A stretch of DNA of 64,000 nucleotides from an uncultured Steroidobacteraceae bacterium. Its GTDB lineage: Bacteria; Pseudomonadota; Gammaproteobacteria; Steroidobacterales; Steroidobacteraceae. The position numbers and the translations under genes were made by a program. The notes under the pieces are model-generated. The model did no database searches. It was not told the origin of the DNA and saw only the letters and a program-made list of their open reading frames with translations. The stretch spans positions 12,043 to 76,042 of the forward strand of contig CAZBTV010000006.1 of assembly GCA_964494895.1 (NCBI GenBank), given 5' to 3'. Position 1 is the stretch's first letter. Every line of letters begins with the position of its first letter. Positions 362 to 60,833 of the stretch are shown piece by piece.

Positions 362-2944
362 TCAGAGGAACAACTCCACCGCCGGATCGCGAAGATTGTA
401 GTGGGAGCTCATCGCATGCCCATAGGCGCCGACGTTCGCGACGAGCAGAACGTCCCCCTCGGCAGTCGGCGGCAGCAGGCGGTCGTGTCCGAGCACATCA
501 GCGCTCTCGCAAATCGGACCCACTACGTTCACCACCTCCGTGGCTGGCTCTTCGGCGCGCGTGAGATTGGCGATCTCATGATATGCACCATAGAGTGCCG
601 GACGGATCAGTGAGTTCATTCCCGTGGCGACTCCCACGTAGCGGACTTCGCCTTTGGACTTCAGCTGGGTGACGCGGGTCAGGAGCACTCCGGAGGTGGC
701 GACCAGATAGCGGCCGGGCTCGATCCAGAACTCGAGCTTGGGATGCTCAGCGCGCACAGCGGTCAACAAGGTGTCGAGCTTGGCCAGATCCAGACTCATC
801 TGGTCGCAGCGCTCTGGCACACCCAATCCGCCACCGACGTCGATCACGCGAACCGAGTCGAAGTGTTGCGCAATATCGGCCAGCAATCTGGCCGTCTGTT
901 CCCACGTTGTCACATCGAAAATTCCGCTGCCGACGTGGGCCTGAAGGCCAACGACACTCACGCCGATCTCGCGTGCATGGCGCACGAACGACTTGAGATC
1001 CGTGACCGGTATGCCGAACTTGGAATAGGCACCAGCGGTCCGTACATGATGGTGATGGCCGCGGCCAACACCGGTATCGATGCGGACGAAGATCTCGCGG
1101 TGACGGAAAATGTCCGGCCACGTCGACAAGGAGTAGGTGTTATCGACGGTGACTCGCACCCCTTGCTCGAACGCCCATACATACTCACTGCGTGGAGCGA
1201 AGTTCGGTGTGAACAGGATTCGGATCGGATCGATGTCTGGGAAAAGCTCCAGGACGCGCTCGATCTCGCCACGTGAGACACACTCGAACTCGACACCTTC
1301 CGCGCGAACCGCCTGCAACACTTGCGGGTGCGGATTCGCCTTCATGGAGTAATGAACGCGCGCCACGGAAGTGAGCGCACGCAGTGCACGTGCGGAGCTG
1401 CGAACTTCGTTCAGATCGTAGACGAACGCGGCATCCCGATCGCCAAGGGCGTGAATGAGCGGCGTGCGCTTGTGCACCCACCACGGCGCGGCGCGCGCCA
1501 CGACGGCCTTCGGGTGCGAGAAGAGTTGCTCCCACGTCGGACCGAGCACGCGGTCACCCGGCACAGGACGGATCAGCAACTCGTGAAGTTGCTCCACGAG
1601 TCGATCGCCCTGGTTCTCGTCGACGACGAAGGTGAAGTTGAGATCGTTCGCCGCCTGGCTCACCAGGTAGATTTTCTGTTCCTCGAAGAATTCGAAAGCA
1701 TCGCCGAGTTGGTGGAGGATGGCACGGATGTTACGCCCGACGAGACTCACAGACGCGCAGGGTCCGATGACCTGCACGCGACAAAGTCGTGAGAGGCTGG
1801 CCACCAGCTCACTCAACAACGTGTTGTCGAGAGTGTTGGCGGCCGGATCGAGCGAGACCGTGACATTCGTCTCTGAAGTCGAGACGAGGTCCACCGACAT
1901 GCCGTGCTCTTTGAAGATCTGGAAAGCGTCGGCGAGAAAGCCCACCTGGTGCCACATGCCCGGGCTTTCCATGGAGATCAGCGTGATCCCCTTCTTCGTG
2001 CAGACCGCCTTTACTTGCGCGCCGCCGTCGCCACCCTCCGCGCTCAGGATCGTGCCTTCCAGCTCGGGAGCCTGCGTTGCGTAGACATGCAACGGAATGC
2101 GGTACTGTCGGGCCGGGAGAATGCAGCGCGGGTGCAGTACCTTTGCGCCGCTGGTTGCGATTTCCTGGGCCTCATCGTAGTGAAGCGCGCGGAGCAGGCG
2201 GGCGGTCGGGGTCGAACGAGGATTGGCGCTGAACATACCAGGTACGTCAGTCCAGATCTCCAGACGCTGCGCCCGTATTTTCGCCGCCAGATACGCAGCC
2301 GATGTATCGGAGCCACCGCGGCCGAGGAGCACGGTGTTGCCATCGTCATCGCTAGCGATGAAGCCCTGTGTGATCACGATGGGAGCAAGTGCGTCCAAGC
2401 GCTCCTCGAGTGCCTCGTCCGGCGCAAAGTTGCATGTTGCGGATAGGACGCTCGCCTTGGCGCTCGCACTCCGACGCTCCTCCGCGCGCAGCATGGTGCG
2501 CGCATCGGCCCAGGCGACATTGAGTCCCTGGGTCCGGAGAAAGCGCGCACCGAGCTCGGTGGCCATGAGCTCGCCGGTTGCCATCACACGCGCCCGCGTA
2601 CGATCGCTCACCTCTCCGACGAGAGCGACTCCAGCGGCAATTTGCCGTAGCTCCTGCAGGTGCTTCTCGACGTCGCCTACAGAAATTCCAAGCTCCGTCG
2701 CCAGCCGATGATGGCGCTCCTCGATGGAACGTAGCTCCTCGTCATGAGATCGCACGAGCGCGGAATCCAGCAGTCGCTCGAGGCGGTCGGTAATGCCCGA
2801 AATCGCGGAGTGCACAATCAGCACCCGTGCTCCACCAGCGGCCCGGTCGGCCGTCACCTTGGCAATATTGCGCCAGTTCGCGAGCGAGGAAACGCTCGTT
2901 CCGCCGAACTTCAGGACGACCCAGGCAGAGGAGTTGCGCGTCAC
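362..2944 (-). CDS. lysC/lysA: bifunctional aspartate kinase / diaminopimelate decarboxylase (LysC-LysA fusion)
   Basis: 860-aa ORF with a GTG start. The N-terminal half has the aspartokinase signature VVLKFGGTSV plus ACT-like repeats. The C-terminal half is a PLP-dependent DAP decarboxylase fold (YSMKANPHP..., GGGLGVP, EPGRYLVA). The fusion architecture is known in Xanthomonadales-like genomes. Confidence 0.9.
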   Translation of the reverse strand: MTRNSSAWVVLKFGGTSVSSLANWRNIAKVTADRAAGGARVLIVHSAISGITDRLERLLDSALVRSHDEELRSIEERHHRLATELGISVGDVEKHLQELRQIAAGVALVGEVSDRTRARVMATGELMATELGARFLRTQGLNVAWADARTMLRAEERRSASAKASVLSATCNFAPDEALEERLDALAPIVITQGFIASDDDGNTVLLGRGGSDTSAAYLAAKIRAQRLEIWTDVPGMFSANPRSTPTARLLRALHYDEAQEIATSGAKVLHPRCILPARQYRIPLHVYATQAPELEGTILSAEGGDGGAQVKAVCTKKGITLISMESPGMWHQVGFLADAFQIFKEHGMSVDLVSTSETNVTVSLDPAANTLDNTLLSELVASLSRLCRVQVIGPCASVSLVGRNIRAILHQLGDAFEFFEEQKIYLVSQAANDLNFTFVVDENQGDRLVEQLHELLIRPVPGDRVLGPTWEQLFSHPKAVVARAAPWWVHKRTPLIHALGDRDAAFVYDLNEVRSSARALRALTSVARVHYSMKANPHPQVLQAVRAEGVEFECVSRGEIERVLELFPDIDPIRILFTPNFAPRSEYVWAFEQGVRVTVDNTYSLSTWPDIFRHREIFVRIDTGVGRGHHHHVRTAGAYSKFGIPVTDLKSFVRHAREIGVSVVGLQAHVGSGIFDVTTWEQTARLLADIAQHFDSVRVIDVGGGLGVPERCDQMSLDLAKLDTLLTAVRAEHPKLEFWIEPGRYLVATSGVLLTRVTQLKSKGEVRYVGVATGMNSLIRPALYGAYHEIANLTRAEEPATEVVNVVGPICESADVLGHDRLLPPTAEGDVLLVANVGAYGHAMSSHYNLRDPAVELFL

Positions 2945-26240: not shown

Positions 26241-26999
26241 TCAGGGTCCGACCTGTACCTGCTGCATCAGCCGCGTGGTTTGCTCCGTGAGCAAGGCGGC
26301 GAAGAATGATTCCAGTTGCACATAGTCCTGTGCCGGGATTGCTTTCGTATCTGGCGGGTCGGCGAAGGTCGTCCACTCCAGCGCATCGTTCCCTCCCCAG
26401 TCACGGGCTCGCAACTGCGGGCCTTCCGGTGAGGGGACCACCACCACCATTTCGGTCATACTGAATAGGCTCGGCTTGCCATCGGGAGCGGCAGCCTCGC
26501 CGGTCGCAAAGCCCCAGCCTCGGAGATAGTCGGGCAGCCCCTTGCGGCGTGCGGAGCCGCCATGAGTGGAGTTGTTGAGGCCGGGAGCGAGCGCAATGAT
26601 GGCCTGGACGCTCTCCTGCGAGGCGAGGTGCTCGAACGGCGCTGCGCATTCCTTCGGCAAGCCCTTTGAGAAGTTGCCATTGAGGAAGCACGACTCCCGG
26701 GCGCGATCGAGCTCCTCGGTCATCTGCAGCGGCACGAGCACCAGGCCCATCCGTGCCGCATGATCCTTCAACGCATCGATGAGCAGGCTGCTCACAGGCC
26801 AGTCGACCGTCTCGGTTTTGAGGAAACCGTCCTTGAGAGATTTGCCCGAATGGTAGTGTGTGACTTCCGGATACAACACCGTCACGACTCCAACGCGGGA
26901 GCCCCTGGCGAGCACCAACGGTGAAGCCGCCGTCACCGTCGCAACCGACGTGCTCAACACCCACAGGCAAGCTATCCAGCCTGCCCCGACTCTAACCAT
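26241..26999 (-). CDS. secreted hypothetical protein (252 aa)
   Basis: ATG 26999. Signal-like N-terminus GWIACLWVLSTSVATVTAAS. No family motif recognised. Coding-like composition. Confidence 0.55.
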   Translation of the reverse strand: MVRVGAGWIACLWVLSTSVATVTAASPLVLARGSRVGVVTVLYPEVTHYHSGKSLKDGFLKTETVDWPVSSLLIDALKDHAARMGLVLVPLQMTEELDRARESCFLNGNFSKGLPKECAAPFEHLASQESVQAIIALAPGLNNSTHGGSARRKGLPDYLRGWGFATGEAAAPDGKPSLFSMTEMVVVVPSPEGPQLRARDWGGNDALEWTTFADPPDTKAIPAQDYVQLESFFAALLTEQTTRLMQQVQVGP

Positions 27000-27497
27000 A
27001 GCTCTGGTCCTTCACACAACCCGTCTTGTGTTTACCTTCCGCGCGGCGGCCTGCCGCTCGAGAAAGACGGGGCTCTCCATGCCGCGATAAAGTCGATGCC
27101 TTCGGTTGTGTTCCTTGCGCCACGAAGTCTAGCGCGTGCCCGGTCTCGCTAGATAGCCCAGCCAGGTACCTCACCGGGGATCGTAAGGCAAAGATACGTG
27201 GCGCTCGCGTTCCCGGCCATAGGGAGAGACCACAATCACGCCGCTGTGTGGCCGCCGCTGTCTGCGGGAAATCGCAGCGGCAGGCCGCGACGGATACAGG
27301 CACCGGCACGCCATTCGAGCGATGGCTCACACTTTGAGTTGGGGAGCCACTGCGCACCTCCATGAGGTGCCGTGCTCGAGCGCTCCGGCGACTCCTTCAC
27401 GCTGTCGCTTCCAGGATCTGCGTGTTGGCTCAAGTTTTCTTTTTCAAAGTCGTTATCAAATGTCAAACCCAGAGGTCTGCGGGATCGACTTCGCGAC

Positions 27498-30029
27498 ATG
27501 TCGCGTCTAACCAAGCACATGCCGGCAGTGGCTGGCTATCGCGAGCGGCTGGCCACATTGCAAGGCGCTTGGGACAGCCTTGCGCTGTTGTCGCATCTCA
27601 GCGAGGACGGAACCAACCTCAGCGGCACGCGGCAGGCCTTCGAATCGCTCGCGGGCGACCTCGTGACACACCTCGCGGAGGAGACCCAAAAGAAGGCGCT
27701 GCTCGCGGCACGCGCCAGGGCACAGGTGGCGATCGACATCCTGGTGCGAAACCTTTTCGAGCGTACGGCCGACATCGGCTTTCTTGCAGCGGACGGACGC
27801 ATCCGCCGCTTTGCCCGGCGAATTCCGGACCTCCGACGCAGCGCCAGCGGCACCGGCGCGACCGATTCAGCGGTCAAGGCCCTCGCGGCGGCAACGCATG
27901 CTCTCGAGCGCCATCTCGCCGAGTACGTCGCCAAGTATTCTGTCTACCACAACGTGATCCTGCTCTCTCCCGAGGGTGAAGTTCTCGCGCAGCTCGAGAA
28001 CGGCTCCGCTCCGGCCTCTACGCGCGACCCGCTCGTCGGCAGCACCTTGGCGAGTGATAAGGCTTACCTCGAGACGTATCGGCAAACGGATCTCGTCCCC
28101 GAATCGCGCCGCGCCCTCATCTATTCGCACCGGGTTGCTTCCGAGCGCGAGACGCTCGGAGTTCTGTGCCTGTGCTTTCGTCTGGAGGACGAATGCGCGG
28201 GTATTTTCGCCAAGTTGCGCTCGGCCGCCGATTGGACCGTGCTCTCATTGTTGGATGCCAACGACGAAGTCATTGCCACCAGCGATCCTTACCAGGTCCC
28301 CGTCGGGGCGCGTGTCACGCCAGGCAACGGTGACACGGGCGACATCATCCGTTTCGCGGGCCGGGAGTTCCTGGCGGTCACGCGCAAGCCCCAACCGTAT
28401 CAGGGTTACACCGGCCCGCAATGGCGCGGGCATGTCATGATTCCGCTGGAGCGCGCCTTCGAGGCGGACGGCCGCTCCGGCAATCCCGGCTGCACCTCCG
28501 AGGTGTTGGCAGATCTGCGCTCGAGCGCTGCGACATTCTCCTCGGCGCTGCGCGACATCCCCCGCCAGGCGGATGCCGTCCAGCGCGATCTCAATCGCTC
28601 CGTCTGGAATGGCAGCGTGCGGCTGTCCCTCAGCGACAGCGGCAACAGCACCTTCGCGAAAGCCCTGTTGCGCGAGATCAGCAATATGGGGCGCAAGACC
28701 AAGGAGGTGTTCGAGCACTCCATCGAAGAGCTGCACGAGACGGTTGTCTCCTCTGTCTTGCACGATAGTCAGTTCATGGCCTCGCTGGCGAGCGAGCTGC
28801 TGGCGCGCAACCTGTACGAGCGCGCAAACGACTGCCGCTGGTGGGCGCTCGACACGACATTGATCGGCCGGCTCACCAATGTGGAAGGCTGCGACGACGA
28901 TGCGGTGACCCGCGTACTACGGCACATCAACAGCTTGTACACCGTTTACCATTGTATAGTGCTGTTGGATTCGGACCGACGTATCGTGGCGACCTCCCGC
29001 CCGGAATACGAGCACCTGACAGGCACACAGATGGATGAGCCTTGGGCGGCACAGACTCTCGAGGTGGTCGGCACCCAAGGCTATAGCGTGTCAGGATTTC
29101 AGCCCAGCGCACTTTACGACAACCGACCCACGCTGATCTTCGGTGGCGCCGTCAGAGGCGCGAAGGGACGGGTCGTCGGTGCCGTCGCCGTGGTGTTCGA
29201 TACAGCCCCACAGTTGGCGGCGATGTTGCACGATTGTCTGCCCCGCGACGAGAGCGGACAGCCACTCGCGGGATCTGTCGCTCTGTTTCTGGATCGCGAT
29301 CAACGAGTCATGGCAAGCAGCGCCACCGTCGATGCCGGCGCTCTCGGGCTGCAATGGACTCGAGACGCCGCCCGGCAAGGTGAAGCTCGCGTAGTCCGTG
29401 TTGGAGAAAGCTACCACGCGATCGGAGTAAAGCCTGACAGCGGTTACCGCGAGTATCCGGGACTTGGCGGATACGCGATGGTGATGATCCCGATCGGCGG
29501 CGTGGCGCAGCGGCGCGGGGGCGCACGCGGCGCCGTGCCACAGCGGGCGGCAACTCGCCAGAGCGGCAAACACGACTTTCGTGAGTTTGCCACTTTCGCT
29601 GCAGGGGATGGCTGGTACGCGTTGCCCACCGCCAATGTGATCGAAGCCGTCGATGCGCGTACGCTGCAGACACTACCGACCGCCGAGCGCTGGTGCGCCG
29701 GCTATCTGATGTTCGCGGGCGAGCCTATCGCGGTTGCGGATCTCAGCCAGGTGCTCGGCGAAAGTCAGTTGGAGACCCCACGTATCGTGGTCATCATCCG
29801 CGCCCAAGGACGAGCCAAACCCTTCGGCCTCCGGGTGGAGCTGTTAGGAGATGTCTCGGAAGTGCCGACGGACCGCCTGTTGCCGATCGATGGCTCGAGC
29901 GAGCAGCTGGCCACATTGGCTATCGAGCCTGCCGATCCCAACGCGCCGCTGGTCATGATTCTGAGTCCTGACCGCCTGGCAACGCTCCTCTACGGAGATC
30001 TGGCCGGCCCGTCGGCCGTAGCTGCCTGA
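27498..30029 (+). CDS. soluble tandem-sensor-module protein with C-terminal CheW-like domain
   Basis: ATG 27498 (MSRLTKH...). CheW-like C-terminus at about 29568-29990: FATFAAGDGWYALPTANVIEAVD...GEPIAVADLSQVLG...PRIVVIIRAQGRAKPFGLRVELLGDVSEVPTDRLLPI. The N-terminal part is an internal duplication: LVRNLFERTADIGFLAADG...YSVYHNVILLSPEGEVLAQ matches LLARNLYERANDCRWWALD...YTVYHCIVLLDSDRRIVATS. No TM segment and no HAMP/MCP signalling domain seen. Confidence 0.8.
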   Translation: MSRLTKHMPAVAGYRERLATLQGAWDSLALLSHLSEDGTNLSGTRQAFESLAGDLVTHLAEETQKKALLAARARAQVAIDILVRNLFERTADIGFLAADGRIRRFARRIPDLRRSASGTGATDSAVKALAAATHALERHLAEYVAKYSVYHNVILLSPEGEVLAQLENGSAPASTRDPLVGSTLASDKAYLETYRQTDLVPESRRALIYSHRVASERETLGVLCLCFRLEDECAGIFAKLRSAADWTVLSLLDANDEVIATSDPYQVPVGARVTPGNGDTGDIIRFAGREFLAVTRKPQPYQGYTGPQWRGHVMIPLERAFEADGRSGNPGCTSEVLADLRSSAATFSSALRDIPRQADAVQRDLNRSVWNGSVRLSLSDSGNSTFAKALLREISNMGRKTKEVFEHSIEELHETVVSSVLHDSQFMASLASELLARNLYERANDCRWWALDTTLIGRLTNVEGCDDDAVTRVLRHINSLYTVYHCIVLLDSDRRIVATSRPEYEHLTGTQMDEPWAAQTLEVVGTQGYSVSGFQPSALYDNRPTLIFGGAVRGAKGRVVGAVAVVFDTAPQLAAMLHDCLPRDESGQPLAGSVALFLDRDQRVMASSATVDAGALGLQWTRDAARQGEARVVRVGESYHAIGVKPDSGYREYPGLGGYAMVMIPIGGVAQRRGGARGAVPQRAATRQSGKHDFREFATFAAGDGWYALPTANVIEAVDARTLQTLPTAERWCAGYLMFAGEPIAVADLSQVLGESQLETPRIVVIIRAQGRAKPFGLRVELLGDVSEVPTDRLLPIDGSSEQLATLAIEPADPNAPLVMILSPDRLATLLYGDLAGPSAVAA

Positions 30030-30112: not shown

Positions 30113-33100
30113 ATGCAATATGTCGCCAGACTTTTGGCCATGAACTCGACGCGGAACGTTGTTGCAACGCACACTCAAGAGCCGGAGGCGCCCCACGAGC
30201 CCGGCCTGACGTTGCCCGGATCTGAGTCCAGCCGCGGCGAAATGGCTCGGCGCTTTCGCGAATTCGATTGGTCCTCCACGCCGCTCGGCCCGGTCGAGTT
30301 CTGGCCCGAGAGCTGGCGCAATGCCGTGCAGATCATTCTCGACTCGAGCTTCCCTACCGCCCTGGGCTTGGGCGACGAGCTCATCTATTTCTACAACGAT
30401 GCGTTCATTCCATTGGCTGGTCCGTCGCGTCACCCGGCAGCGCTGGGCCTGCCGGTAAAGGTCGCCTGGAAAGAGATCTGGGATCAGATTCTCCTGCCTC
30501 GATTCACGCACACCCTGACAACCGGGGCTCCAACAGGTGAGGCGGATCTGTTGATGCCGCTCGTGCGCAGCGGCTATCTCGAGGAAACCTACATCACGTT
30601 CTCGTTTGCCGCGCTCCGCGACGACCGGAATCGTCCCAGCGGCATTTTCTGTACAGCCATCGAGAATACCCGGCGTATCATCGCCGAGCGGCAAATGAAT
30701 TGCTTGCGGGCGCTCGCCGCGGGCAGCTCGTTCGCCGACTCGCCTGAGGGTGTCTGCCAATCGGCAGTGGCGGCTCTCGAAGGCAACCCCCGCGACCTGC
30801 CGTTCGCGGCACTGTATCTGGTCGAGGCGGACGGAAAGCGCGCGCATCTCGCCGGGACGGCTGGACTGTTGTCCCTTCCCAGCCTCTTTCCACAAACTCT
30901 GGAGATTACTGAAGGGAGCTCGAACGCGGTCGCGCGCGTGGCTCTCACTCGCCTTCCACAGCTCATCGAGGACGTACAGCCGTTTGTAGACGGCCTGGTT
31001 CGCACACCAGAGGTAACTCCCCAACGGGCGCTGGCGCTACCCGTATCGAATCCAGCAGCAGAGAATCTCGCGGCGGTCCTGGTCGCGGGTGTAAACCCGA
31101 TGAGGCCCGTGGATGAGTCGCGCACCTTTTTCGATCTCGTCGCCAATCACCTGGAAACCGCGATTTACAGCGCACGCGCGAAACAACATGTTCGCCAGCG
31201 TGCGCAGGCGCTCGCGGAGCTCGACCGCGCAAAAACGGTCTTCTTCAGCAATATCAGTCATGAGCTCCGGACGCCGCTGACCTTGTTGCTGGCGCCACTT
31301 GACGACCTGTTATCACGGACAACTCTGGAATCAGCGGACCGCGACCTGGTGGAAATCGCCCGTCGCGGCGGCGGACGGCTGTTGAAGCTGGTGAATTCGC
31401 TGTTGGAGTTCTCACGTATCGAGGCCGGGCGCATCGAGGCGAGCTTCGAGGCTACCGACCTTGCAAGTCTGACGAGCGATCTTGCCAGCGTGTTTCGCTC
31501 GGCGTTCCAGCGTGCCGGGGTTGGATTGGCCATTGACTGCCCGAAGCTGCCTGAGGATGTGTTCGTCGATCGCGATATGTGGGAGAAGATCGTTCTCAAC
31601 CTCGTGTCGAACGCGTTCAAGTTCACGCTCGAAGGCCGGGTGCAGGTTTCTCAGCACGCTCTGGGTGAGAGCATCGAGCTGAGGGTAAACGACACCGGCT
31701 GTGGTGTGGCGGCCGAGGATCTTCCCCGTTTGTTCGAGCGATTCTTTCGTGGGCGCGCATCCCAAGCGCGCACCCACGAAGGTTCCGGAATCGGTCTCTC
31801 TCTCGTGCAGGAGCTTGTGAAGCTGCACGGCGGCAGCGTCGAGGCGCAAAGTCAGGTTGGTATAGGCACCACCATCACGGTACGCATCCCGCGCGGCTCC
31901 GCTCACCTGCCACCTGAGCGCTTGGGAGTGATGCGGACCTTGGAGGTTGCCCGGATAGGCGCACTGCCCTTCCTCGAAGAAGCACTGGGTTGGTTGCCGG
32001 AGGGAGCGCGCGCGGAGCTACGCGCGACGGACCAAAGCACCACCCTGGCTGCAGACCAGGCGAGTACTCCGGATCAGACCGCGCGCATTCTCATCGCCGA
32101 TGACAACGCCGACATGCGACACTATATGTCGCGACTGCTCGGCGATCGGTGGCAGGTCGAGACGGAGCCCGACGGAGGAGCCGCGCTAGAGCACATTCGC
32201 CGCAACCCACCTGATCTCGTCATCGCAGACGTGATGATGCCCGTGATGGACGGGTTTGCACTGTTGCGCGCGATCCGAGCCGATGACGCTATCTCCAAGC
32301 TTCCGGTAATGTTACTTTCGGCCCGTGCTGGCGAAGAGGCCTCGTCCGAGGGACTGCGCGCCGGAGCGGACGACTATGTCACCAAGCCGTTCTTTGCTCG
32401 GGAACTGGTAGCCCGGGTAGAGTCCAGACTCGCCCAGGCCCGGTTGCGTGCTGCGGAACATCGCGCGCGGACCGCTGCAGAAGAAGCAAACCGAGCCCGG
32501 GACGTATTCTTCACAATGCTGTCGCATGAGCTGCGTACGCCGCTCATGGCAGTGCTCGCCTGGACCGCCCTGCTCAAAGGGAACAAACTGGATGCTGACG
32601 AAGCACTGCGCGCGCTCGATCTCATCGAGCGTAACGCGCGTGTTCAACGCCGGCTGGTGGATGACCTCCTCGACATCTCGCGCATCGTAACAGGCCGCCT
32701 GCGCATCGAACCGCGTACCATCACTTCTCTGGCACCGATCATCAGCACAGTGGTCGACTCCTTCCGCCCCGCAGCGCTGGCGAAAAATCTCGCCGTGGAG
32801 ACAGCCTTTGAGGCAGACGCAGGCGCAGTACACGGGGACCCCGAACGCTTGCAACAGGTAGTCTGGAATCTGCTCTCCAACGCGATCCGCTACACATCGC
32901 CGGGAGGACAGATCCAACTTTTCTACGGCCGCCGCGACCATCATGTCGAATTGCTGGTGCGGGACTCAGGCCAGGGAATCGCCCCGGAGGCGCTGCCGCA
33001 CCTGTTCGAGCGCTACTGGCAAGGAGCCAACACCCAACGTCGCTCCCACGGCCAGGGACTGGGGCTCGGGCTGGCGATCGCTCATCGCATCATCACGCTG

Positions 33101-33724
33101 CACGGCGGTCAAATCACCGCAGCCAGCGACGGTGAGGGACGCGGGTCAACCTTCACGGTAAGCCTGCCGGTGCTTCTGGCCGACCCGGAATCGAATCCTG
33201 CTGACCCTGACTGCGGCCATCCGGCAACCTCGAGCGCGCGCATGCAGGACGCTGCGGCCTCAGAGTTGGAAACCGCCGCGAGTGCCGCGTACCAGCATAA
33301 CCTACACCCAATCACGGGCGAGAGTAGCCATAGCTCTGAGAATCTGCGCGTCCTGCTGGTGGAAGATCATGAAGGAGTTGCGAAAGCCTGCCGCCGGCTA
33401 TTGATGGGCCACGGCCACTTCGTCGTCTGTGTTCCGGGCTTCGCCGCCGCAATCGAGGCCACCGAGCGCGCCAAGTTCGATCTGCTCATCTGTGATCTGA
33501 CGCTTCCCGATGGCAGCGGCCTCGAGTTGCCGTCCCGGCTGCGCACGCGGTTCACCCGCTTAGGCCGCCACGGCCAGCTTCCCGCCATTGCCATCAGCGG
33601 CAGCGTGTATCGTGAGGACATCATACGCAGCCTCGAAAATGGCTTCGCGCTGCACCTGGCGAAGCCTTTCGACGAGGCAGACCTCGTCTCCGCGGTGAAT
33701 AAAGTGATCGCAACGCTGGCGTGA
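30113..33724 (+). CDS. hybrid sensor histidine kinase with two kinase cores: PAS-GAF-HisKA-HATPase-REC-HisKA-HATPase-REC
   Basis: PAS-like segment FREFDWSSTPLGPVEFWPESW. H-box 1 FFSNISHELRTPL (His codon 31259-31261), with N/G boxes IVLNLVSNAFKFT, DTGCGV, GSGIGLSLV. REC1 DLVIADVMMPVMDG (Asp 32228-32230). H-box 2 FFTMLSHELRTPL (His 32525-32527), with VVWNLLSNAIRYT, DSGQGI, GQGLGLGLAIA. REC2 DLLICDLTLPDGSG (Asp 33494-33496). The start could be 30113 or 30140. Confidence 0.88.
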   Translation: MQYVARLLAMNSTRNVVATHTQEPEAPHEPGLTLPGSESSRGEMARRFREFDWSSTPLGPVEFWPESWRNAVQIILDSSFPTALGLGDELIYFYNDAFIPLAGPSRHPAALGLPVKVAWKEIWDQILLPRFTHTLTTGAPTGEADLLMPLVRSGYLEETYITFSFAALRDDRNRPSGIFCTAIENTRRIIAERQMNCLRALAAGSSFADSPEGVCQSAVAALEGNPRDLPFAALYLVEADGKRAHLAGTAGLLSLPSLFPQTLEITEGSSNAVARVALTRLPQLIEDVQPFVDGLVRTPEVTPQRALALPVSNPAAENLAAVLVAGVNPMRPVDESRTFFDLVANHLETAIYSARAKQHVRQRAQALAELDRAKTVFFSNISHELRTPLTLLLAPLDDLLSRTTLESADRDLVEIARRGGGRLLKLVNSLLEFSRIEAGRIEASFEATDLASLTSDLASVFRSAFQRAGVGLAIDCPKLPEDVFVDRDMWEKIVLNLVSNAFKFTLEGRVQVSQHALGESIELRVNDTGCGVAAEDLPRLFERFFRGRASQARTHEGSGIGLSLVQELVKLHGGSVEAQSQVGIGTTITVRIPRGSAHLPPERLGVMRTLEVARIGALPFLEEALGWLPEGARAELRATDQSTTLAADQASTPDQTARILIADDNADMRHYMSRLLGDRWQVETEPDGGAALEHIRRNPPDLVIADVMMPVMDGFALLRAIRADDAISKLPVMLLSARAGEEASSEGLRAGADDYVTKPFFARELVARVESRLAQARLRAAEHRARTAAEEANRARDVFFTMLSHELRTPLMAVLAWTALLKGNKLDADEALRALDLIERNARVQRRLVDDLLDISRIVTGRLRIEPRTITSLAPIISTVVDSFRPAALAKNLAVETAFEADAGAVHGDPERLQQVVWNLLSNAIRYTSPGGQIQLFYGRRDHHVELLVRDSGQGIAPEALPHLFERYWQGANTQRRSHGQGLGLGLAIAHRIITLHGGQITAASDGEGRGSTFTVSLPVLLADPESNPADPDCGHPATSSARMQDAAASELETAASAAYQHNLHPITGESSHSSENLRVLLVEDHEGVAKACRRLLMGHGHFVVCVPGFAAAIEATERAKFDLLICDLTLPDGSGLELPSRLRTRFTRLGRHGQLPAIAISGSVYREDIIRSLENGFALHLAKPFDEADLVSAVNKVIATLA

Positions 33725-33811: not shown

Positions 33812-34456
33812 TCAATTGCGGGCGTTGACGTTGCTCCGCTCGCCTTTGAGTCCGGCAAGCTGTGCGATCTCCACGAGTTGGATGAGCGAGCTGGCATGCA
33901 GCTTCTGCATGACCCGCGCGCGATGTACCTTGATCGTTTTCTCAACCGTCCCGAGCTCCGCGGCAATCTGCTTGTTGAGTCGTCCAGCGACCACCTTCTC
34001 CAGAACCTGGCGCTCGCGAGGGGTCAGCGTCGCGATACGTCCTGCGATGGTATTGCGTGTTTCCCACTCCGCGCGACCGGCGGCGTCGATCGCCAGCGCC
34101 TCCGCGAGCGCGGCCAGCAGCTCCTCGCGATCCACTGGCTTGGTGAGAAAGTTCACCGCCCCGGCTTTCATGGCGCGCACGGTATTGTGGATCTCCCGAT
34201 TGGCCGTGAGAAAAATGACCGGCCGATGGCATCCGGAAGCAGCCAGGCAGCGCTGCAGCTGCAGGCCGTCCAGATCGGGCATGGACAGATCCAGGAGCAC
34301 GCAACCGGGCGGCTCCGATTCATGCCCGATGAGAAACTCGTGCGCCGAGTTGAATTCCCGCACGTCATAACCCGCGCCCCGCACCAGGCGTCCAATGGCT
34401 CTGCAAACATCGGGATCGTCGTCCACGATGAATACTGTTTCCTCCTGTACGCTCAT
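33812..34456 (-). CDS. FixJ/LuxR-family response regulator (REC + LuxR-type HTH)
   Basis: VFIVDDDPDVCRAIGRLV...CVLLDLSMPDLDGLQL...LTKPV. C-terminal LTPRERQVLEKVVAGRLNKQIAAELGTVEKTIKVHRARVMQKL. Confidence 0.9.
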   Translation of the reverse strand: MSVQEETVFIVDDDPDVCRAIGRLVRGAGYDVREFNSAHEFLIGHESEPPGCVLLDLSMPDLDGLQLQRCLAASGCHRPVIFLTANREIHNTVRAMKAGAVNFLTKPVDREELLAALAEALAIDAAGRAEWETRNTIAGRIATLTPRERQVLEKVVAGRLNKQIAAELGTVEKTIKVHRARVMQKLHASSLIQLVEIAQLAGLKGERSNVNARN

Positions 34457-34773
34457 TGTCGCAGCCCCTCCTCCAGCGGCTCACCAGAACCAACTTGAGC
34501 TTCCTTCAGCGCTTCGCCTATGCGCTTCACGATCCCGGCGGCGCGCTTATCGTCCGCGATGATGTCCTCGAGTATGTCGTGCAGCTCGGCGCGATCCATC
34601 ACGGTGCTGGACATGCTGCGTTGCGCTGCCTGCGCGTTGCTCAAAATCGCAGTCAATGGTTGGTTCAGCTCGTGCAGGAGAGCCGCGACATCCGGTCCGG
34701 GTGCATTTCGTGAGTTGCTCAAAGGACGCACGCTCGCATCGTCGTCGTCAATAGGCACTAATCTAACCCTCAC
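34453..34773 (-). CDS. DHp-only (H-box) mini-protein, FixL-type dimerisation/phosphoacceptor helices without PAS or ATPase domain
   Basis: 106 aa, GTG start. ALLHELNQPLTAILSNAQAAQRSM....LHDILEDIIADDKRAAGIVKRIGEAL aligns to my memory of the FixL DHp (ALAHELNQPLAAISNY...RAGQIIRRLRDF). The ORF stops right after helix 2, and its stop overlaps the fixJ-like ATG (ATGA). It could be a functional phosphotransfer protein or a decayed kinase remnant. Confidence 0.6.
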   Translation of the reverse strand: MRVRLVPIDDDDASVRPLSNSRNAPGPDVAALLHELNQPLTAILSNAQAAQRSMSSTVMDRAELHDILEDIIADDKRAAGIVKRIGEALKEAQVGSGEPLEEGLRQ

Positions 34774-51504: not shown

Positions 51505-52935
51505 CTATTGAAGCTGCGACGCGCTCCATCCGCCGCCCAGTGCTTCAATCAACGTGACACTGGCTGTCAGGCGGTTGACGAACACCGTGAGTGCCGATTG
51601 CTCGCTTGTCAGACGCGTGGTTTGGGCAGTGATCACGCTGCTGTAGGGTACCGTTCCGGCTTTATACTGGTTCAGGGTGAGCCGTTCGGCCTCGCGGGCC
51701 GCTTGCACCAGTTGATCATCCACAGCACCCTCCTTTTCCAGCACGCGCAGGGTAATTATCTCATCCTCCACCTGCTGAAAACCTTCGAGCACCGTCTCGC
51801 GATAGCTGTCGACAGTGTTCTCCCATGAAGCCCTCGCGGCCGCGAGCTGCGCGCGATGGAGGCCGCCAGCGAACACGATCTGAGACAGTGTGGGGCCCAC
51901 GGACCAGACCCGATTGGGGACCTGGAAAAGCTGCGTAAGGGACCCACTAGCGGTGTAGCCGATGGAGGCTGCCAGAGACAGCGACGGAAAGAAGGCGCCT
52001 TTGGCAACACCGATCTGGGCATTGGCCGCGGCGACCTTACGCTCGGCTTCGGCAATATCAGGACGTCTCTCGAGCAATGCGGAAGGCACGCCGGGGGGGA
52101 CTGTAGGAACATCCGTTCTGAGCGCGGTCGGCGGGATGGAGAACGTGGCGGGCTGCTGTCCAACCAGGACCGCGATCGCGTGCTCCAGCGTTCCTCGTTG
52201 TATTGCCACAGCGGTTTGCTGAGCCTGCGCGGATAGCAACTGCGTCTGTGCAGTCACCACGTCCGCCTTTGCGGCGACCCCAACCCGATAGCGGTTTTCA
52301 GTGATTTTCAGTGCCTGATCATCCGCGCTGACAATATCGTTCAAGAGAATCTGCAGCTGATCCTGTCCGCGAAGCTGGAAATAATCGAGAGCCAGATTGG
52401 CCTGTGCTGACAGACGCGCTGCCGCGAGCTGGGCCTCGCTGAACTGTGCGCTCGCCCGGTCGCTTTCTACCTGACGCCGTACCTGGCCCCAGATATCCAG
52501 AGGCCAGCTCAGCGATCCGGAGGCACTGTTCTGGTTGAAGGTGTTTATTCTGAACGTGTTCCCAACTGCGGCGGACGCACCCGGTGCGTGGCCTTCACGC
52601 ATGCGGTTGCCGCTAACAGTGACGGTAGGCCAGTAACCGGCCGCTGCCTCCCTGACGAGCGCCCTCGCCTGCTCGACGGCGGCAGCCGCCGCCTTCACGT
52701 TCTGATTCGAGATGTCGATCTGCTCCTCGAGACTACTCAGAACGGGGTCATTGAAGACCTGCCACCACGGGCCCCGGCTCAAGGCGTCAGCGGGCTCGGT
52801 GGGCTTCCAATCGCCGAATTCTTTGAAGCTCGTTGCCGTGTCCACCGTCGGACGCTTGTAGTCGGGCCCGATCGCGCACGAGGTGACGAGCACACACATA
52901 CCACTGAGCAATACCCCACGAACGCGATAGATCAT
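51505..52935 (-). CDS. efflux outer-membrane factor lipoprotein (NodT/OprM family)
   Basis: Lipobox LVTSCAIGPDYKRP. Repeated coiled-coil/OEP pattern. ATGA overlap with the upstream RND gene. Confidence 0.9.
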   Translation of the reverse strand: MIYRVRGVLLSGMCVLVTSCAIGPDYKRPTVDTATSFKEFGDWKPTEPADALSRGPWWQVFNDPVLSSLEEQIDISNQNVKAAAAAVEQARALVREAAAGYWPTVTVSGNRMREGHAPGASAAVGNTFRINTFNQNSASGSLSWPLDIWGQVRRQVESDRASAQFSEAQLAAARLSAQANLALDYFQLRGQDQLQILLNDIVSADDQALKITENRYRVGVAAKADVVTAQTQLLSAQAQQTAVAIQRGTLEHAIAVLVGQQPATFSIPPTALRTDVPTVPPGVPSALLERRPDIAEAERKVAAANAQIGVAKGAFFPSLSLAASIGYTASGSLTQLFQVPNRVWSVGPTLSQIVFAGGLHRAQLAAARASWENTVDSYRETVLEGFQQVEDEIITLRVLEKEGAVDDQLVQAAREAERLTLNQYKAGTVPYSSVITAQTTRLTSEQSALTVFVNRLTASVTLIEALGGGWSASQLQ

Positions 52936-55900
52936 GTACTGACCTGCATGGATCCGGAACCCTCCTCTCCCCCAAGCGCGCCGAGCGCCGCGGGAGGCGC
53001 CGTACGAGGTTGTTTTTTCCGCGAGAATCGATGGATGTACAGGTACACCACCGGAGTGGTGTACAAAGTCAAAAGTTGGCTCACGATGAGGCCACCGACG
53101 ATCGAGACGCCCAGCGGGCGGCGCATTTCCGTGCCGTCACCGTAAGCCACCGCCAATGGGAGAGCGCCGGCGATTGCCGCGCAGGTGGTCATCATAATGG
53201 GCCGGAAGCGCAGAGAGCAGGCGCGCGCGATCGCCGAGCGCGGATCGAGGCCAAGCGTGCGCTCCGCCTCGAGTGCGAAATCGACCATCATGATGGCGTT
53301 CTTCTTGACGATACCGATCAGGAGCAGGATGCCCAGAAAGGCAATGAGACTGAACTCCATATCGACAACCAATAGAGCCAACAGCGCGCCCAGGCCGGCC
53401 GACGGCAGTGTCGAAAGGATGGTGAGCGGCTGACTATAACTCTCGTACAGCATGCCGAGCACCACATAGATAGCGACCAGCGCGCCCAGCAACATGAGAG
53501 GCTGCCCGCTGGCCTGCTGCTGGAAAAGGCGTGCCGTGCCATACGAGCTGCCGTGGATGCTGACGGGCACATGGATCCGCTCCATCGTCTTCTCGATCGC
53601 CGCCAGCCCAGTGCTCAAGGCCTCACCTTCGGGGAGATTGAAAGAGATCGAGGTGGACACCGATGTTCCGGTGTGATTCACGCTCACCGCCGTGGTGGTG
53701 GTCGCGTAATGGCTGAAAGCCGAAAAAGGAACGACCGTTTCCTTGCTCGTGCTCACCGCGGCGCCCGTCGAAGTGTTGCCGCGGCCGGAGTTGGCCAGCG
53801 AGTTCGCCGCAAGGTTGCGAGCGAGGTCCGCGGCAACGTCGCTGGCGCTCGTCGCTACCGTCCTGGATTTCGCCTTGAATGAGGTTGTGCCCGCGACCGC
53901 TTGTGTCGCCTGGGTGCCGCTTACCGCCCCGCCGGAAGTGCTCACGTACATTTCGTTGAGGACCTCCGGGCTCTGCCAGAACTCGGGTGCGACCTCCATT
54001 ACTACATGGTACTGCTGTGGGCTGAAAGGATTGTAGATGGTGGAAACCTGCGCCTGCGCGAATGCACCGCCCAGGGTATTGTCGATCTGGCTCTCGGTGA
54101 GCCCGAGCCGCGAAGCGCTGTCCCGATCGACGATCAGATCAGTCTCCAGCCCGCCGGGCTGCAGATCCGAATCCACGTCCTCCACCTCGGGCACGTCCTG
54201 CAGAGCGCGCCGCAGGTTGACTGACCACTTGCGCAGCTCGGTGAGGTCATCACCCAACAAGGTGTACTGATATTGCGCGTTGCCGGAACGGCCACCCCCG
54301 CCTCCGCCCAGGTCCTGGACAGCCTGAAGGAAGCTGGCAACGCCGGTCACCTTGTTGAGTTTCGGACGCAACCTGTCGATGATCTGATCTGCAGACACGT
54401 CGCGCTCACTCCGGGGCTTGAGCGTCACACTGATACTCGCGGTGGCACCGCCGCCAAAGCCCGGCCCGAAACCTCCCCCGCCGACCGACCCCGTGACGGC
54501 GGCGACCGCGGGATCGTGTTGAATGATGTCCGCGACCTCCTGCAGCTTCGCCTTCATGAGTTGGAAGGACGAGAAGGCATCGCCGCGGATTCCACCCTGG
54601 AGCTGACCCGTATCCTGCTGTGGGAAGAAGCCCTTCGGCACGACGACGTATAGGTACACGTTCAGGACGACCGTCACCAGCAGGATGAGCAACATGATGC
54701 GCCGGTGGTCCAGAGCCCAGCTCAACGATCGCTCGTAACCCGAGCGCAACGCATTGAATCCGCGCTCGAAGGCTCGCCCGAAGCGGGTAAGCTCTCGAGC
54801 GGTCTCCCGACGCAGCAGCCGGGAGCACATCATCGGGGTCGTAGTCAGCGAGACGACCAGGGAGATCAGGATCGATACCGACAGTGTCACGGTGAATTCA
54901 CGGAACAACCGACCCACGATCCCGCCGACCAGCTCGAACGGCACAAACACGGCGACGAGGGACAAGCTCATGGACAGCACGGTGAAACCCACTTCCTGGG
55001 CACCGAGGAGCGCTGCCTTCATTGGCGTCATACCCTGTTCGATGTGACGCGTCGTGTTCTCCATCACGACGATGGCGTCGTCGACCACGAAACCCGTAGC
55101 GATCGTAAGCGCCATCAGGGAAAAGTTGTCGAGCGTATAGTCCAGGAGATACATCGCACCGAAAGTGCCCACCAGAGACACCGGTACCACCAGCGCAGGA
55201 ACCAGCGCGGCGCGATAGCTGTGCAGAAACATGTACACGACGAGGATCACCATAGCCACGGCTAGCAGCAGGGTCTCCTCGACCTGGTGGAGCGATGCGC
55301 GGATCGTGGTAGAGCGATCGAAGGTGACCACAAGGTCGATCTTCGGATCGATGGCGGCTTTCAAAAGCGGCAGCTCGGCTCGGACCGCGTCCACCACTTC
55401 CACAACGTTCGCACCCGGCTGCTGGAGGATCTGCACCGACACGGCAGGCTTGCCGTTGTAGAGCCCATAAGTGCGAATGTTCTCCGTCGCTCCATCCTCC
55501 ATGTCCGTGACGCTGGCGACATCCGAGAGCCGCACAGGCGCATTGTTGCGGTTCGCAATGATCAGGTTACGATACGTTGCGGCGTCACGCGCATTGTCGT
55601 TGGTGTAGATCTGGTAGTGGAGCCGGTCCGACTCGATCGAGCCTTTCGGAGCATTGGCGTTTGCGTTCGAGATTGCGGCCCGGATGTCCTGCAAGCCGAT
55701 GCCGTATTTCGAAAGCGATAGCGGGTTGATCTCGACACGGACGGCGGGCAACGCGCTGCCGCTCACGTTTACCCCGCCTACCCCCTTCACCTGCGATAGC
55801 CGCTGCGAGATGACAGCGTCCGCGGCATCGTAGATCTGCCCCTGGGTCAGGGTATCGGAGGTCATCGCGATGTTCATGATCGGAAACATCGAGCTGTTGA

Positions 55901-56294
55901 TCTTCCGATAGGACGGGTTGCGAGTCAGTGAGCTCGGCAAGTCGGCATGCGCCGCGACTATCGCCGCCTGCACGTCACGCGCGGCACCCTCGATGTCACG
56001 ATCGATGCCGAAGGTAAGCTGGATGTTGGTCGAGCCCACACTGCTGTTCGAGGTCATATCGTCGACATCGGCAATGGCGCCGAGGTGGCGCTCGAGGGGA
56101 GTCGCCACGGTACTCGCCATGACCTCGGGGCTCGCTCCGGGAAGGCTGGCGGAGACGAAGATGGCCGGCACGTCGATTCGAGGCAACGGCGCGACCCCCA
56201 ACAGCGTGAAGGACGCAATGCCCGCGAGGGCCACCCCGATGGTCAGCAGGATGGTCGCGACCGGCCGCGCGATGAAAGGAGCCGAGATATTCAC
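52932..56294 (-). CDS. mdtC: RND multidrug efflux permease (MdtC-like) with Ser/Thr/Ala-rich periplasmic insertion
   Basis: GTG start overlapping the mdtB-like stop. [24 protein letters not shown]...[15 protein letters not shown]. The second RND permease in tandem is an MdtBC-type arrangement. Confidence 0.85.
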
Positions 56295-59200: not shown

Positions 59201-59395
59201 CGCGGTGATGGCTGAGGTGATGACCTCGGGGCTGGCGCCCGGATAAAACGTCTGCACCTGGATGGTCGGATAGTCGACCTCGGGCAGCGCCGACAAAGGG
59301 AGCTGGAAGAAAGCGATCACACCCACGATCAGAATCGCGACCATCAACAAAGTGGTGGCCACGGGCCGCAATATGAAAAGACGTGACGGATTCAT
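56291..59395 (-). CDS. mdtB: RND multidrug efflux permease (MdtB-like)
   Basis: ATG 59395. [33 protein letters not shown]...[15 protein letters not shown]. The 78 upstream codons of the track ORF were rejected. Confidence 0.88.
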
Positions 59396-59459
59396 GCCAT
59401 CAAGTCCGCACGCCGGAGACTCGCACGGGCCGTTCTCTCGTCCACCGGGGCTTGCCGAA

Positions 59460-60833
59460 TCATCGTGTCTGAGCGGGCGGTTGGTCTTGTACTTGGCCTT
59501 GGCGCGCGTGGTTGCGCCGAAACCCTTTGCCGGGTGGAGCGCCGTTCGGAGCAGCGGTGTTTGGAGGAGCCTGTGTTGAAGCCGTGCGAGCCGGCTGCTC
59601 GGTCCCGGGAAGCTGGACAGCAGCGCCATCGCGAAGCCGATCGCCGCCCTCGGTAACCACGACGGCTCCAGGGGTAAGGCCCGCCGTCACCGCCACACGC
59701 TCGCCGTCGACCACACCCAGCGTCACAGGACGTACGGAAACAGTGTTGTCCGGCTTCACCAGATAAACGAACGTCGTGGTTTGCCCGTTCGGCGCGCCGC
59801 GGTGGACCGCCGCGTTCGGCATTACGATCTGGTTCTTCAGCTCGTCCACGACGAGCTGGATATTCACGAACTGGTTTGGAAATAGCACGTTGTCTTTGTT
59901 GTCGAACAGTGCGCGCAGCTTGACCGTGCCGGTAGTGATGTCGATCTGGTTGTCCACCGTCAGCACCTTGCCTTCCGCAAGCTTCGTGCTATCCGCGCGG
60001 TCGTAGGCTTCGGCCCGCAAGCTGGCGCCGTCATGCAGGCGCTGCATGACTTTTGTCACGTTGTCTTCCGGGATGGGGAAGATCGCGGTGATGGGCTGCA
60101 TCTGGGTAATGACCACGATGCCGTTGGCATCGCCCGGGGTCACGTAATTCCCCTGGTCGACCTGGCGCAGCCCCACCCGGCCGGTGACCGGCGCGGTGAT
60201 GTGGCAGTAGACGAGATTGATCCTGGCCGTTCTGAGTTGCGCCTCGTCGGAGGCAACCGTGCCGACGTATTGATCGACGAGCGCGCGCTGAGTGTCGACC
60301 TGCTGCTGAGACACCGAATCCTGGGCAATCAGATCCTCATAGCGCTTCAAGTCGAGCTTGGCGTCGGCCAGCAATGCCTGGTCGCGCCGCAGATTGCCTT
60401 CCATCTGTGCAAGAGCGGCTTCGTACGGGCGCGGATCGATGAGAGCCAGGGGCTCGCCCTGCTTCACGAGCTGCCCTTCCGTGAAAAAAATTTTCTGTAG
60501 CTGGCCGCTGATCTGGGTTCTGACGGTGACCGTCGCCAATGGCGTGATCGTTCCCAGCGCGGGTATCCGCACCGTGATGTCGCCAGAGGCCACCGTGGCC
60601 ACGGATACCGCCACGGGAGCGCTCTGCCCAGCGGTGCCGGGACGAGGTCGGAAGCGATGATTCTGCCGGGAGGCGTTCGCGGCCTCCTGATGTTGCTGCT
60701 GCCGATAGTGGACGAAGCGCACCAGCAGGAAGATGAACCCCAGCACGGCCAGAAGCAGGATGATCGTGACCCGGTGACGGCGCAGAAAGCTCTGCGGAGC
60801 TTCAGGGACAAAGGCCAAGTCGTTTTTCTCCAT
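59460..60833 (-). CDS. mdtA: RND efflux periplasmic adaptor (MdtA-like membrane fusion protein)
   Basis: TM anchor [16 protein letters not shown], then a lipoyl/hairpin pattern: [38 protein letters not shown]. Confidence 0.85.

Follow-up and report, generated by a model that had tools for sequence, protein, structure and literature searches.

A 64,000-nucleotide stretch of DNA from an uncultured Steroidobacteraceae bacterium (the window) encodes an 843-amino-acid protein, the coding sequence of which runs from 27498 to 30029 on the forward strand, stop codon included. The protein is predicted to be cytoplasmic and, by structure modelling, to consist, in this order, of two dCache modules, a flexible tether and a domain of the CheW lineage. 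We hold it to be about an even call that this protein is a cytoplasmic sensor which uses its CheW-like domain to dock on chemoreceptor arrays and modulates the coupling between receptors and kinase. We prefer this reading to one in which the protein works through the hybrid histidine kinase encoded next to it, because its gene is preceded by a promoter-like element of the sigma-28 type, the kinase is limited to one clade, and positions that contact receptors are conserved in the CheW-like domain.

The CheW-like domain occupies residues 694-832 (29577..29993, forward strand). The Pfam model PF01584 matches residues 697-828 (nucleotides 29586-29981; E=2.9e-14) and scores 53.3 bits where the gathering score is 23.5, in close agreement with the boundaries of about 29568-29990 proposed in a preliminary description of this DNA. 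In the AlphaFold2 (AF2) model, region 694-832 has the CheW fold of two intertwined SH3-like beta-barrel subdomains, and Foldseek superposed it on CheW with template-modelling scores (TM-scores, normalised to the target) of 0.85 for 2ch4_W (root-mean-square deviation, rmsd, 2.4 A), 0.81 for 2qdl_B and 0.80 for 8c5v_E. When a profile of the family was compared with PDB sequences, CheW was found with E=5e-15 and CheA's P5 domain only with E of ~0.16, and the domain is therefore assigned to the CheW lineage and not to P5.

Alignment of 88 CheW-like domains of the family to E. coli CheW revealed uneven conservation of its hallmark residues. Gly57 is kept in 98% of the domains (G735 in the window protein), Gly99 in 83% (G777), Glu38 in 69% (E716), Gly63 in 36% (G741) and Arg62 in 25%, the window protein having A740 at the last position. 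Canonical CheW has an invariant Gly57 and Gly63 and a conserved salt bridge between Arg62 and Glu38; CheW carrying the R62A change retains partner binding and is defective in chemotaxis (PMC3828127). With Ala740 at the Arg62 position, the window protein departs from the canonical residue set. We also took the lists of receptor- and CheA-contact positions, in E. coli numbering, from a review (PMC13098124). By a single alignment to E. coli CheW, 5 of the 10 receptor-contact positions lie within the 20 most conserved of 137 family positions (P=0.006), and none of the 16 CheA-P5 interface-1 positions lies within the top 25 (P=0.03). This pattern fits, and is no more than suggestive of, a domain that still holds the receptor tip without full kinase coupling.

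The remainder of the protein was examined with Pfam, NCBIfam, hydropathy profiles and structure modelling. An AF2 model built from a diverse alignment reached a predicted local distance difference test (pLDDT) score of 85.4 and a predicted TM-score (pTM) of 0.78, and replaced an earlier model from close homologues only (pLDDT 74, pTM 0.46). It places the first ~670 residues in one well-defined core made of two duplicated dCache (double-PDC) modules and additional helices, and confines disorder to two internal stretches (residues 325-328 and 674-689) and the C-terminal tail. The flexible linker between core and CheW-like domain spans residues 673-693 (29514..29576, forward strand), with pLDDT below 50 at 674-676 and 681-689. 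Pfam detected no HAMP, MCPsignal or REC domain in the 843 residues, and no NCBIfam model matches the protein. It has no signal peptide or hydrophobic segment and no transmembrane segment, the highest 19-residue Kyte-Doolittle window (1.7) being a polar beta-strand. The preliminary description, which had reported the absence of a transmembrane helix, HAMP domain, methyl-accepting hairpin and receiver, is thus upheld by Pfam and hydropathy.

That description had also proposed a tandem duplication of a module of roughly 300 amino acids, and profile comparison bears this out. Residues 29-347 and ~389-694 are 22% identical (BLASTP E=7e-9), and hhalign, run on profiles of the two modules built from 34 diverse family members, aligned them over 266 columns with a probability of 99.7% and E=1.7e-25. 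Module 1 covers residues 28-323 (27579..28466, forward strand) and comprises a helical hairpin, a long alpha-1 helix with RNLFERTADIGF and two PDC lobes; module 2 covers residues 388-672 (28659..29513, forward strand) and is its duplicate, with RNLYERANDCRWWAL, YTVYH and, at its end, a GYREY motif. The motifs quoted earlier are present in both copies, the second of them only approximately in copy 1, where V stands in place of I: the pairs read LVRNLFERTADIGFLAAD and LARNLYERANDCRWWALD for the first motif, YSVYHNVILLS and YTVYHCIVLLD for the second, and include family-invariant residues. Invariant in module 1 are R84, N85, L86, E88, R89, A91, D92, G94, F95, D99, Y143, Y147 and Y150; invariant in module 2 are R437, L439, Y440, E441, R442, D445, R447, W448, W449, A450, L451, L480, Y481 and Y484, and further Y650, R651 and E652.

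The assignment of these modules to dCache comes from their modelled structure. The Pfam model dCache_1 (PF02743) stays below its cut-off of 45, scoring 36.9 bits on the whole protein (residues 128-230) and 24.9 and 17.2 bits when the halves are scanned separately, and homologues bear precomputed PF02743 matches that are marked faint or weak. In the AF2 model each module starts with one helix and a second, very long one, followed by a pair of shorter helices and then two five-stranded PDC lobes, so that the long N-terminal helix and two PDC lobes characteristic of dCache are found in both. Foldseek against PDB matched the modules to Tlp3, DctB, PctA/B/C, Mlp24 and KinD with TM-scores of 0.62-0.72, the top match being Tlp3 (6w3r_B, 0.72, rmsd 3.5 A). 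The tentative likeness to Cache/PDC-type sensors noted before is thereby borne out at the level of the fold, with a subthreshold match at the level of the hidden Markov model (HMM). What the modules do not share with typical dCache domains is an extracytoplasmic position between two transmembrane helices, there being no such helix and a fusion to a cytoplasmic CheW-like domain. This location is unusual, because Cache domains are normally extracytoplasmic: 78% are predicted to be extracellular, and a mainly intracellular location is found for only two small families (PMC4822843).

The evidence that ties the gene to motility lies upstream of it. A promoter-like element of the sigma-28 (FliA) type is found at 27430..27457 on the forward strand, with TCAAGTTT as the -35 box, a spacer of 11 nucleotides (N11) and GTCGTTATC as the -10 box, ending 41 nucleotides (nt) before the ATG at 27498. 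Written as TCAAGTTT-N11-GTCGTTAT, it agrees at 12 of 16 positions with the E. coli FliA form TAAAGTTT-N11-GCCGATAA; the E. coli tar promoter, as an example, is TAAAGTTT-N11-GCCGATAAC (PMC4183435). The pattern TMAAGTTT-N11-GNCGWTA has a single match on both strands of the 64 kb and none in 100 shuffles. A regular expression that was written after seeing the data matches 18 of 81 family upstream regions as against 1 of 822 control upstream regions, with 1 match on the reverse strand. To avoid circularity, a position weight matrix (PWM) had been built beforehand from 17 published E. coli FliA promoters. With this matrix, the best scores of family upstream regions exceeded those of the controls (Mann-Whitney p=2.4e-10); 12 of 84 family regions lay above the 99th percentile of the 822 controls, and the window element lies above it as well. 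The high scorers are Steroidobacteraceae orthologues (46-100% identity), in which the -35 and -10 boxes are kept and the spacer varies, together with the loci L079 and L073 and a family gene of Thioalkalivibrio sulfidiphilus that encodes no CheW domain. This last gene has a canonical TCAAG...GCCGATAAC site, TCAAGCGA-N12-GCCGATAAC, which begins at L086:7828, ~170 nt before the gene start.

We also scanned metagenomes with the exact window motif (17 fixed bases). The 77 matches are close to the number expected by chance, so that only the GC-rich intergenic subset is informative. Within it, seven matches lie upstream of family members. One (L147) lies between the flgJ stop and the flgK start, at the end of a flgCDEFGHIJ operon, a classical place for a sigma-28 promoter; another (L142) lies 32 nt before a fliS-like gene; and two (L157, L159) precede genes of methyl-accepting chemotaxis proteins (MCPs). 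Since the motif precedes flgK, fliS-like and MCP genes, the variant with the CGTTA -10 box appears to serve late flagellar and chemoreceptor genes, and the gene of the window clade very probably belongs to the flagellar and chemotaxis sigma-28 regulon. The same motif was seen 30-34 nt upstream of an unannotated ORF (open reading frame) of ~125 amino acids in seven loci (L106, L107, L110, L135, L139, L148, L166), and at the same distance upstream of a 654-amino-acid protein with GTPase-like motifs, which we take to be dynamin-like, in four (L099, L129, L161, L167). These genes, on GC-rich metagenome contigs, are possible further members of the regulon.

The position of this element bears on the start of the gene. 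The longest ORF is 27372-30029, beginning with a GTG at 27372; the ATG at 27498 fits the N-termini of homologues (MSRLTKxMPAV...). Since just 8-11 nt separate the end of the promoter-like motif from the first ATG in four relatives, translation may instead begin at Met8 (27519), a residue that is nearly invariant. A search for expression in sequencing runs found the window sequence only in DNA runs of soil metagenomes and in no RNA run.

The family to which the protein belongs is large. A search of 1.84 billion representatives with the sensor part alone retrieved 821 clusters at 50% identity, 327 of them at E<1e-30, and a scan of one genome per species gave at least 597 family loci. Hosts among the matches listed include Steroidobacteraceae, Rhodocyclales, Gallionellaceae, Methylophilaceae, Methylococcales, Xanthobacteraceae, Campylobacterales, Deferribacteres and others, with Steroidobacter spp., Methylobacillus flagellatus, Rhodocyclus tenuis and Parazoarcus communis among the cultured ones; these lineages are commonly flagellated. 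The best 154 representatives display only two architectures: one carries a CheW-like domain at the C-terminus (a local HMM recognised 113, and Pfam confirmed divergent cases besides), and the other is without any output domain. Fusions to an MCP, kinase, cyclase or GGDEF output were absent from these 154, and seemingly CheW-less long forms among them were rejected as a class of their own when they proved to have divergent CheW domains. The CheW-less form, of ~650-685 amino acids, ends directly after the second module and occurs in Thioalkalivibrio, Methylomonas, Methylophaga, Halopseudomonas and others. Three such sister proteins of ~668 amino acids, in Gammaproteobacteria, are encoded by orphan genes (L086:8001-10007 in Thioalkalivibrio sulfidiphilus CP001339, L087 and L088), and the three genomes examined showed no conserved partner gene. 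Database labels for members of the family read only "chemotaxis protein CheW" or "cache domain-containing protein", the CheW-less form bearing just the latter. We found no description of a Cache-CheW or sensor-CheW protein in the literature searched; one survey of CheW-like domains left rare architectures aside and does no more than note the existence of fusions with PAS and with unrelated domains.

Genes of the family are mostly orphans with neighbours that vary from locus to locus, and few loci connect them to chemotaxis genes. In L067 the family gene is closely preceded by genes for a protoglobin-MCP, a CheW and a PAS-PAS-MCP, in L079 a cheW gene is immediately upstream, and in L033 a PAS-HAMP-MCP gene is upstream. 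A Pil-Chp cluster near L045, L056 and L076 was rejected as a link: the proximity is probably coincidental, because the cluster is on the other strand and behind thiD and hemL. Nor are MCP or che genes over-represented around the family loci, 8 of 78 being no excess, and this link was likewise rejected. As a separate observation, the Steroidobacter/Povalibacter loci (L010-L016, L019) encode a stand-alone CheY-like receiver ~2.5 kb upstream of the family gene; the one at L011:7143-7526 is 36% identical to E. coli CheY and lies after an ABC transporter and before a histidine-phosphatase gene.

From these data we envisage the following course of events. The gene would be expressed together with flagellar and chemotaxis genes, and the CheW-like domain would dock in the manner of CheW, CheV or ParP, with the hairpin tip of an MCP held in the groove between its two subdomains. 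Docking would put the double-Cache core at the baseplate of the array, where it could bind a small molecule from inside the cell; there might be two ligands, or each module of a pseudo-dimer might take one. Binding of the ligand might then alter the occupancy of coupling-protein positions, or perturb them, and so bias the control of CheA or the cooperativity of the array. As far as conservation can tell, the protein probably acts as a receptor-bound modulator or competitor of CheW and not as a full kinase-coupling CheW, because neither the CheA-P5 contact surface nor Arg62 is conserved.

Several observations weigh against a role in arrays. The hallmark residues Arg62 and Gly63 are poorly kept in the family, the interface statistics come from one alignment to one CheW, and the fold may be what keeps several of the receptor-contact positions conserved. 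Pfam scans of 33 further ORFs and tblastn found no che, MCP, flagellar or mot gene in the window; with E. coli CheA, CheW, CheR, CheB, CheY, CheZ, Tar, MotA and MotB as tblastn queries, the sole matches were receiver domains of two-component genes. The preliminary description had noted that cheA, cheY, cheB and cheR are missing from the 64 kb, which these searches uphold, and had characterised the protein as being without MCP, CheA or REC partners; none is indeed nearby, and it is this second statement that the sigma-28-type promoter undermines by tying the gene to the flagellar and chemotaxis regulon. In the family at large, an MCP gene lies within 10 kb in only 8 of the 78 loci, which is not above chance for genomes rich in MCPs. 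The promoter signal itself is limited to Steroidobacteraceae and a few others, betaproteobacterial loci being without it, and the window has CGTTA as its -10 box where E. coli has CGATA. The existence of relatives without a CheW domain implies that the sensor core can work without CheW docking, and the disordered tether speaks against rigid allosteric transmission from core to docking domain.

An alternative that keeps the protein at the array is that the double-Cache core serves as a platform for protein-protein contacts, for instance in positioning or assembling arrays, as the N-terminus of ParP does, and the CheW-like domain anchors it, the whole being a scaffold or localisation factor. The strongest conservation falls on the long helices (RNL[FY]ER..D) and the module ends, with no obvious pocket motif, and the CheW-less relatives, having no output domain, must work through protein contacts. 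ParP offers a precedent: its C-terminal SH3-like domain (AIF), which resembles CheW and P5, enters arrays and binds the MCP tip through a conserved hydrophobic groove, and its N-terminal part has a separate function (PMC5706961). The window protein resembles ParP in joining a C-terminal domain of the array-docking type to a functionally separate N-terminal part. It differs in that the AIF domain is nearer to CheA-P5 and the domain of the window family nearer to CheW, and in that the N-terminus of ParP is a ParC-interaction region whereas that of the window protein is a duplicated Cache sensor. The complete dCache fold, which binds small ligands in every solved match listed, and the lack of a conserved neighbouring partner gene argue against a scaffold, and we regard it as unlikely.

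Somewhat less credible still is that the CheW-like domain has been recruited outside chemotaxis, for oligomerisation or for binding a helical partner, and that the protein is an independent, one-component-like cytoplasmic sensor. In its favour, Arg62, Gly63 and the CheA interface are not conserved, the genes are orphans that in most loci have no che neighbours, and a survey of domains like CheW records rare cases in which these are fused to others "with no obvious connection to chemotaxis". However, the promoter of the sigma-28 type is common to flgK, fliS and MCP genes, the receptor-groove positions are conserved, and the hosts come from lineages that are commonly flagellated.

The remaining alternative involves the gene immediately downstream. 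It starts 83 nt after the CheW-fusion gene, on the same strand and with no terminator-like site in the gap, and encodes a dual hybrid histidine kinase of 1203 amino acids (30113..33724, forward strand). Pfam bears out its description as a non-CheA hybrid kinase and gives the order HisKA-HATPase-REC-HisKA-HATPase-REC behind a GAF-like N-terminus, so that two complete HisKA-HATPase-REC units stand in one chain behind an N-terminal region of ~350 amino acids. In this region no PAS domain was detected and GAF_2 gave only a subthreshold match; its first 350 residues match only 6 loci, and the N-terminal 360 residues have no sequence similarity to solved structures. Beyond the kinase, on the reverse strand, lie a REC-GerE (LuxR-type) response regulator (33812-34456, by Pfam) and a small stand-alone HisKA/DHp ORF of 106 amino acids (34453-34773; HisKA 31.5 bits, above threshold; H-box LHELNQPL), which is without an ATPase domain and overlaps the start of the regulator by 4 nt. 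Small HisKA ORFs homologous to it (80-132 amino acids) occur in relatives, and ORFs of the cassette are found in L001, L002, L089, L090 and L091.

The preliminary description had proposed that the sensor-CheW fusion feeds this kinase, and had named absence of the gene pair from every other genome as a result that would speak against the proposal. The pair does recur, in L001, L002, L005, L006, L008, L089, L090 and L091, with the kinase conserved at 73-82% identity in related loci and orthologues of the CheW-fusion gene at 64-86%. It is kept, however, only inside one syntenic clade of Steroidobacteraceae, in which synteny extends to unrelated flanking genes (SDR, FNR-like, AsmA). L007, whose orthologue is 75% identical, lacks all three of kinase, regulator and small HisKA ORF, whereas the gene and its promoter are kept there in the order 252-amino-acid protein, CheW-fusion gene, SDR, FNR-like, AsmA. 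The pair is absent at 62% identity (L003/L004), at 56% (L009) and from every locus at 47% or less, in Beta-, Alpha- and Gammaproteobacteria, Campylobacterales and Deferribacteres; in all, ~70 loci of other lineages are without it. By this comparison of loci, the three genes missing from L007 form one cassette of gain or loss, and the cassette is a separable, clade-specific neighbour because it is lost in L007 and absent outside the clade. It may be co-transcribed with the CheW-fusion gene, though the family does not need the kinase, which is probably not an obligatory partner; obligatory coupling to it was rejected for the whole family on synteny.

That Cache ligand binding is nevertheless relayed, in the window, by the CheW-like domain to the HisKA/HATPase units of the adjacent non-CheA hybrid kinase and from there to the nearby LuxR-type regulator we consider improbable: retention of the closely spaced pair in 10 loci (the window and nine relatives), down to 64% identity between orthologues, and the finding that L026 and L035, two unrelated loci of Betaproteobacteria, have other hybrid kinases just downstream and likewise on the same strand, speak for it, but the latter kinases are not homologous in their sensor regions, adjacency within the clade may reflect relatedness only, given equally syntenic unrelated flanks, and the kinase has, by Pfam, no CheW-like or P5 domain for the known CheW-P5 contact. 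We know of no contact between CheW and HisKA.

Some other genes of the window deserve mention. Divergent from the CheW-fusion gene, 26241-26999 on the reverse strand encodes a 252-amino-acid protein with a signal-peptide-like N-terminus and no Pfam match, the gene being syntenic in all close relatives at 57-77% identity. At 362-2944 (reverse strand) lies an 860-amino-acid fusion of an amino-acid (aspartate) kinase, an ACT domain and an Orn/DAP/Arg decarboxylase, which resembles a bifunctional enzyme of the lysine pathway. Two adjoining ORFs of ~1110 amino acids at 52932-59629 (reverse strand), the first an AcrB-type RND transporter by Pfam and the second at 56291-59629, are followed by a gene for an outer-membrane factor (51505-52935); the arrangement over 51505-59629 looks like an efflux system of the MdtBC type.

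Comparison with known systems indicates which features of the protein are new. Its C-terminal 140 residues resemble CheW in scoring above the Pfam threshold, in superposing on it, in lying nearer to it than to CheA-P5 by profile, and in retaining Gly57, Gly99, Glu38 and the hydrophobic groove positions. Canonical CheW, by contrast, is a single domain of ~150-170 amino acids encoded with cheA or MCP genes, whereas the window gene is in no che operon and its product has 843 amino acids, three domains and a sensor region of 690 amino acids in front; further differences are the alanine in place of Arg62 and the variability of the CheA-P5 interface-1 positions across the family. CheV is outlined in one source as CheW joined to a REC domain (PMC12691637). 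CheV and the window protein both fuse a CheW-like docking domain to a second signalling module that brings its own regulatory input to the coupling layer; in the window protein, the added module is N-terminal and is a double dCache of the ligand-binding type, and no phosphorylatable REC is present (no Response_reg match).

On the sensor side, the dCache_1 ligand-binding domains of MCPs and kinases (Tlp3, PctA/B/C, DctB, Mlp24) share with the window modules the long N-terminal helix and the two PDC lobes, but the window modules are cytoplasmic, form a tandem on a single chain, lack transmembrane helices on either side and are preceded by an extra helix. Soluble MCPs with PAS or protoglobin domains, which adjoin a family member in L067, likewise sense in the cytoplasm and feed into the chemotaxis machinery; they do so through an MCP signalling hairpin with methylation sites, and the window protein has neither (no PF00015). 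Without an MCP hairpin, it would have to act from the position of a coupling protein. The components and the principle of docking by a CheW-like domain are thus already known, and it is the combination of tandem cytoplasmic dCache modules with a divergent CheW that is undescribed in the literature searched.

Arrays are held to be signalled only via MCPs and to adapt via CheR, CheB and CheV, and coupling proteins are seen as passive scaffolds. More tentatively than for the window protein, and on the doubtful side of the balance, we suggest that a sensor carried by a coupling protein is a widespread input route, in which a tethered, pseudo-dimeric double-dCache core is brought to receptor tips by a CheW-lineage domain that binds these tips and not CheA, an intracellular metabolite tunes kinase control or cooperativity, and CheW-less paralogues act untethered. 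If true, the coupling layer would gain, from a sensor joined physically to a CheW-type domain, a direct input that is cytoplasmic and possibly metabolic. The protein would then be among the few clearly intracellular dCache sensors, and its tandem duplication could mimic, inside a single chain, the dimer of a membrane receptor.

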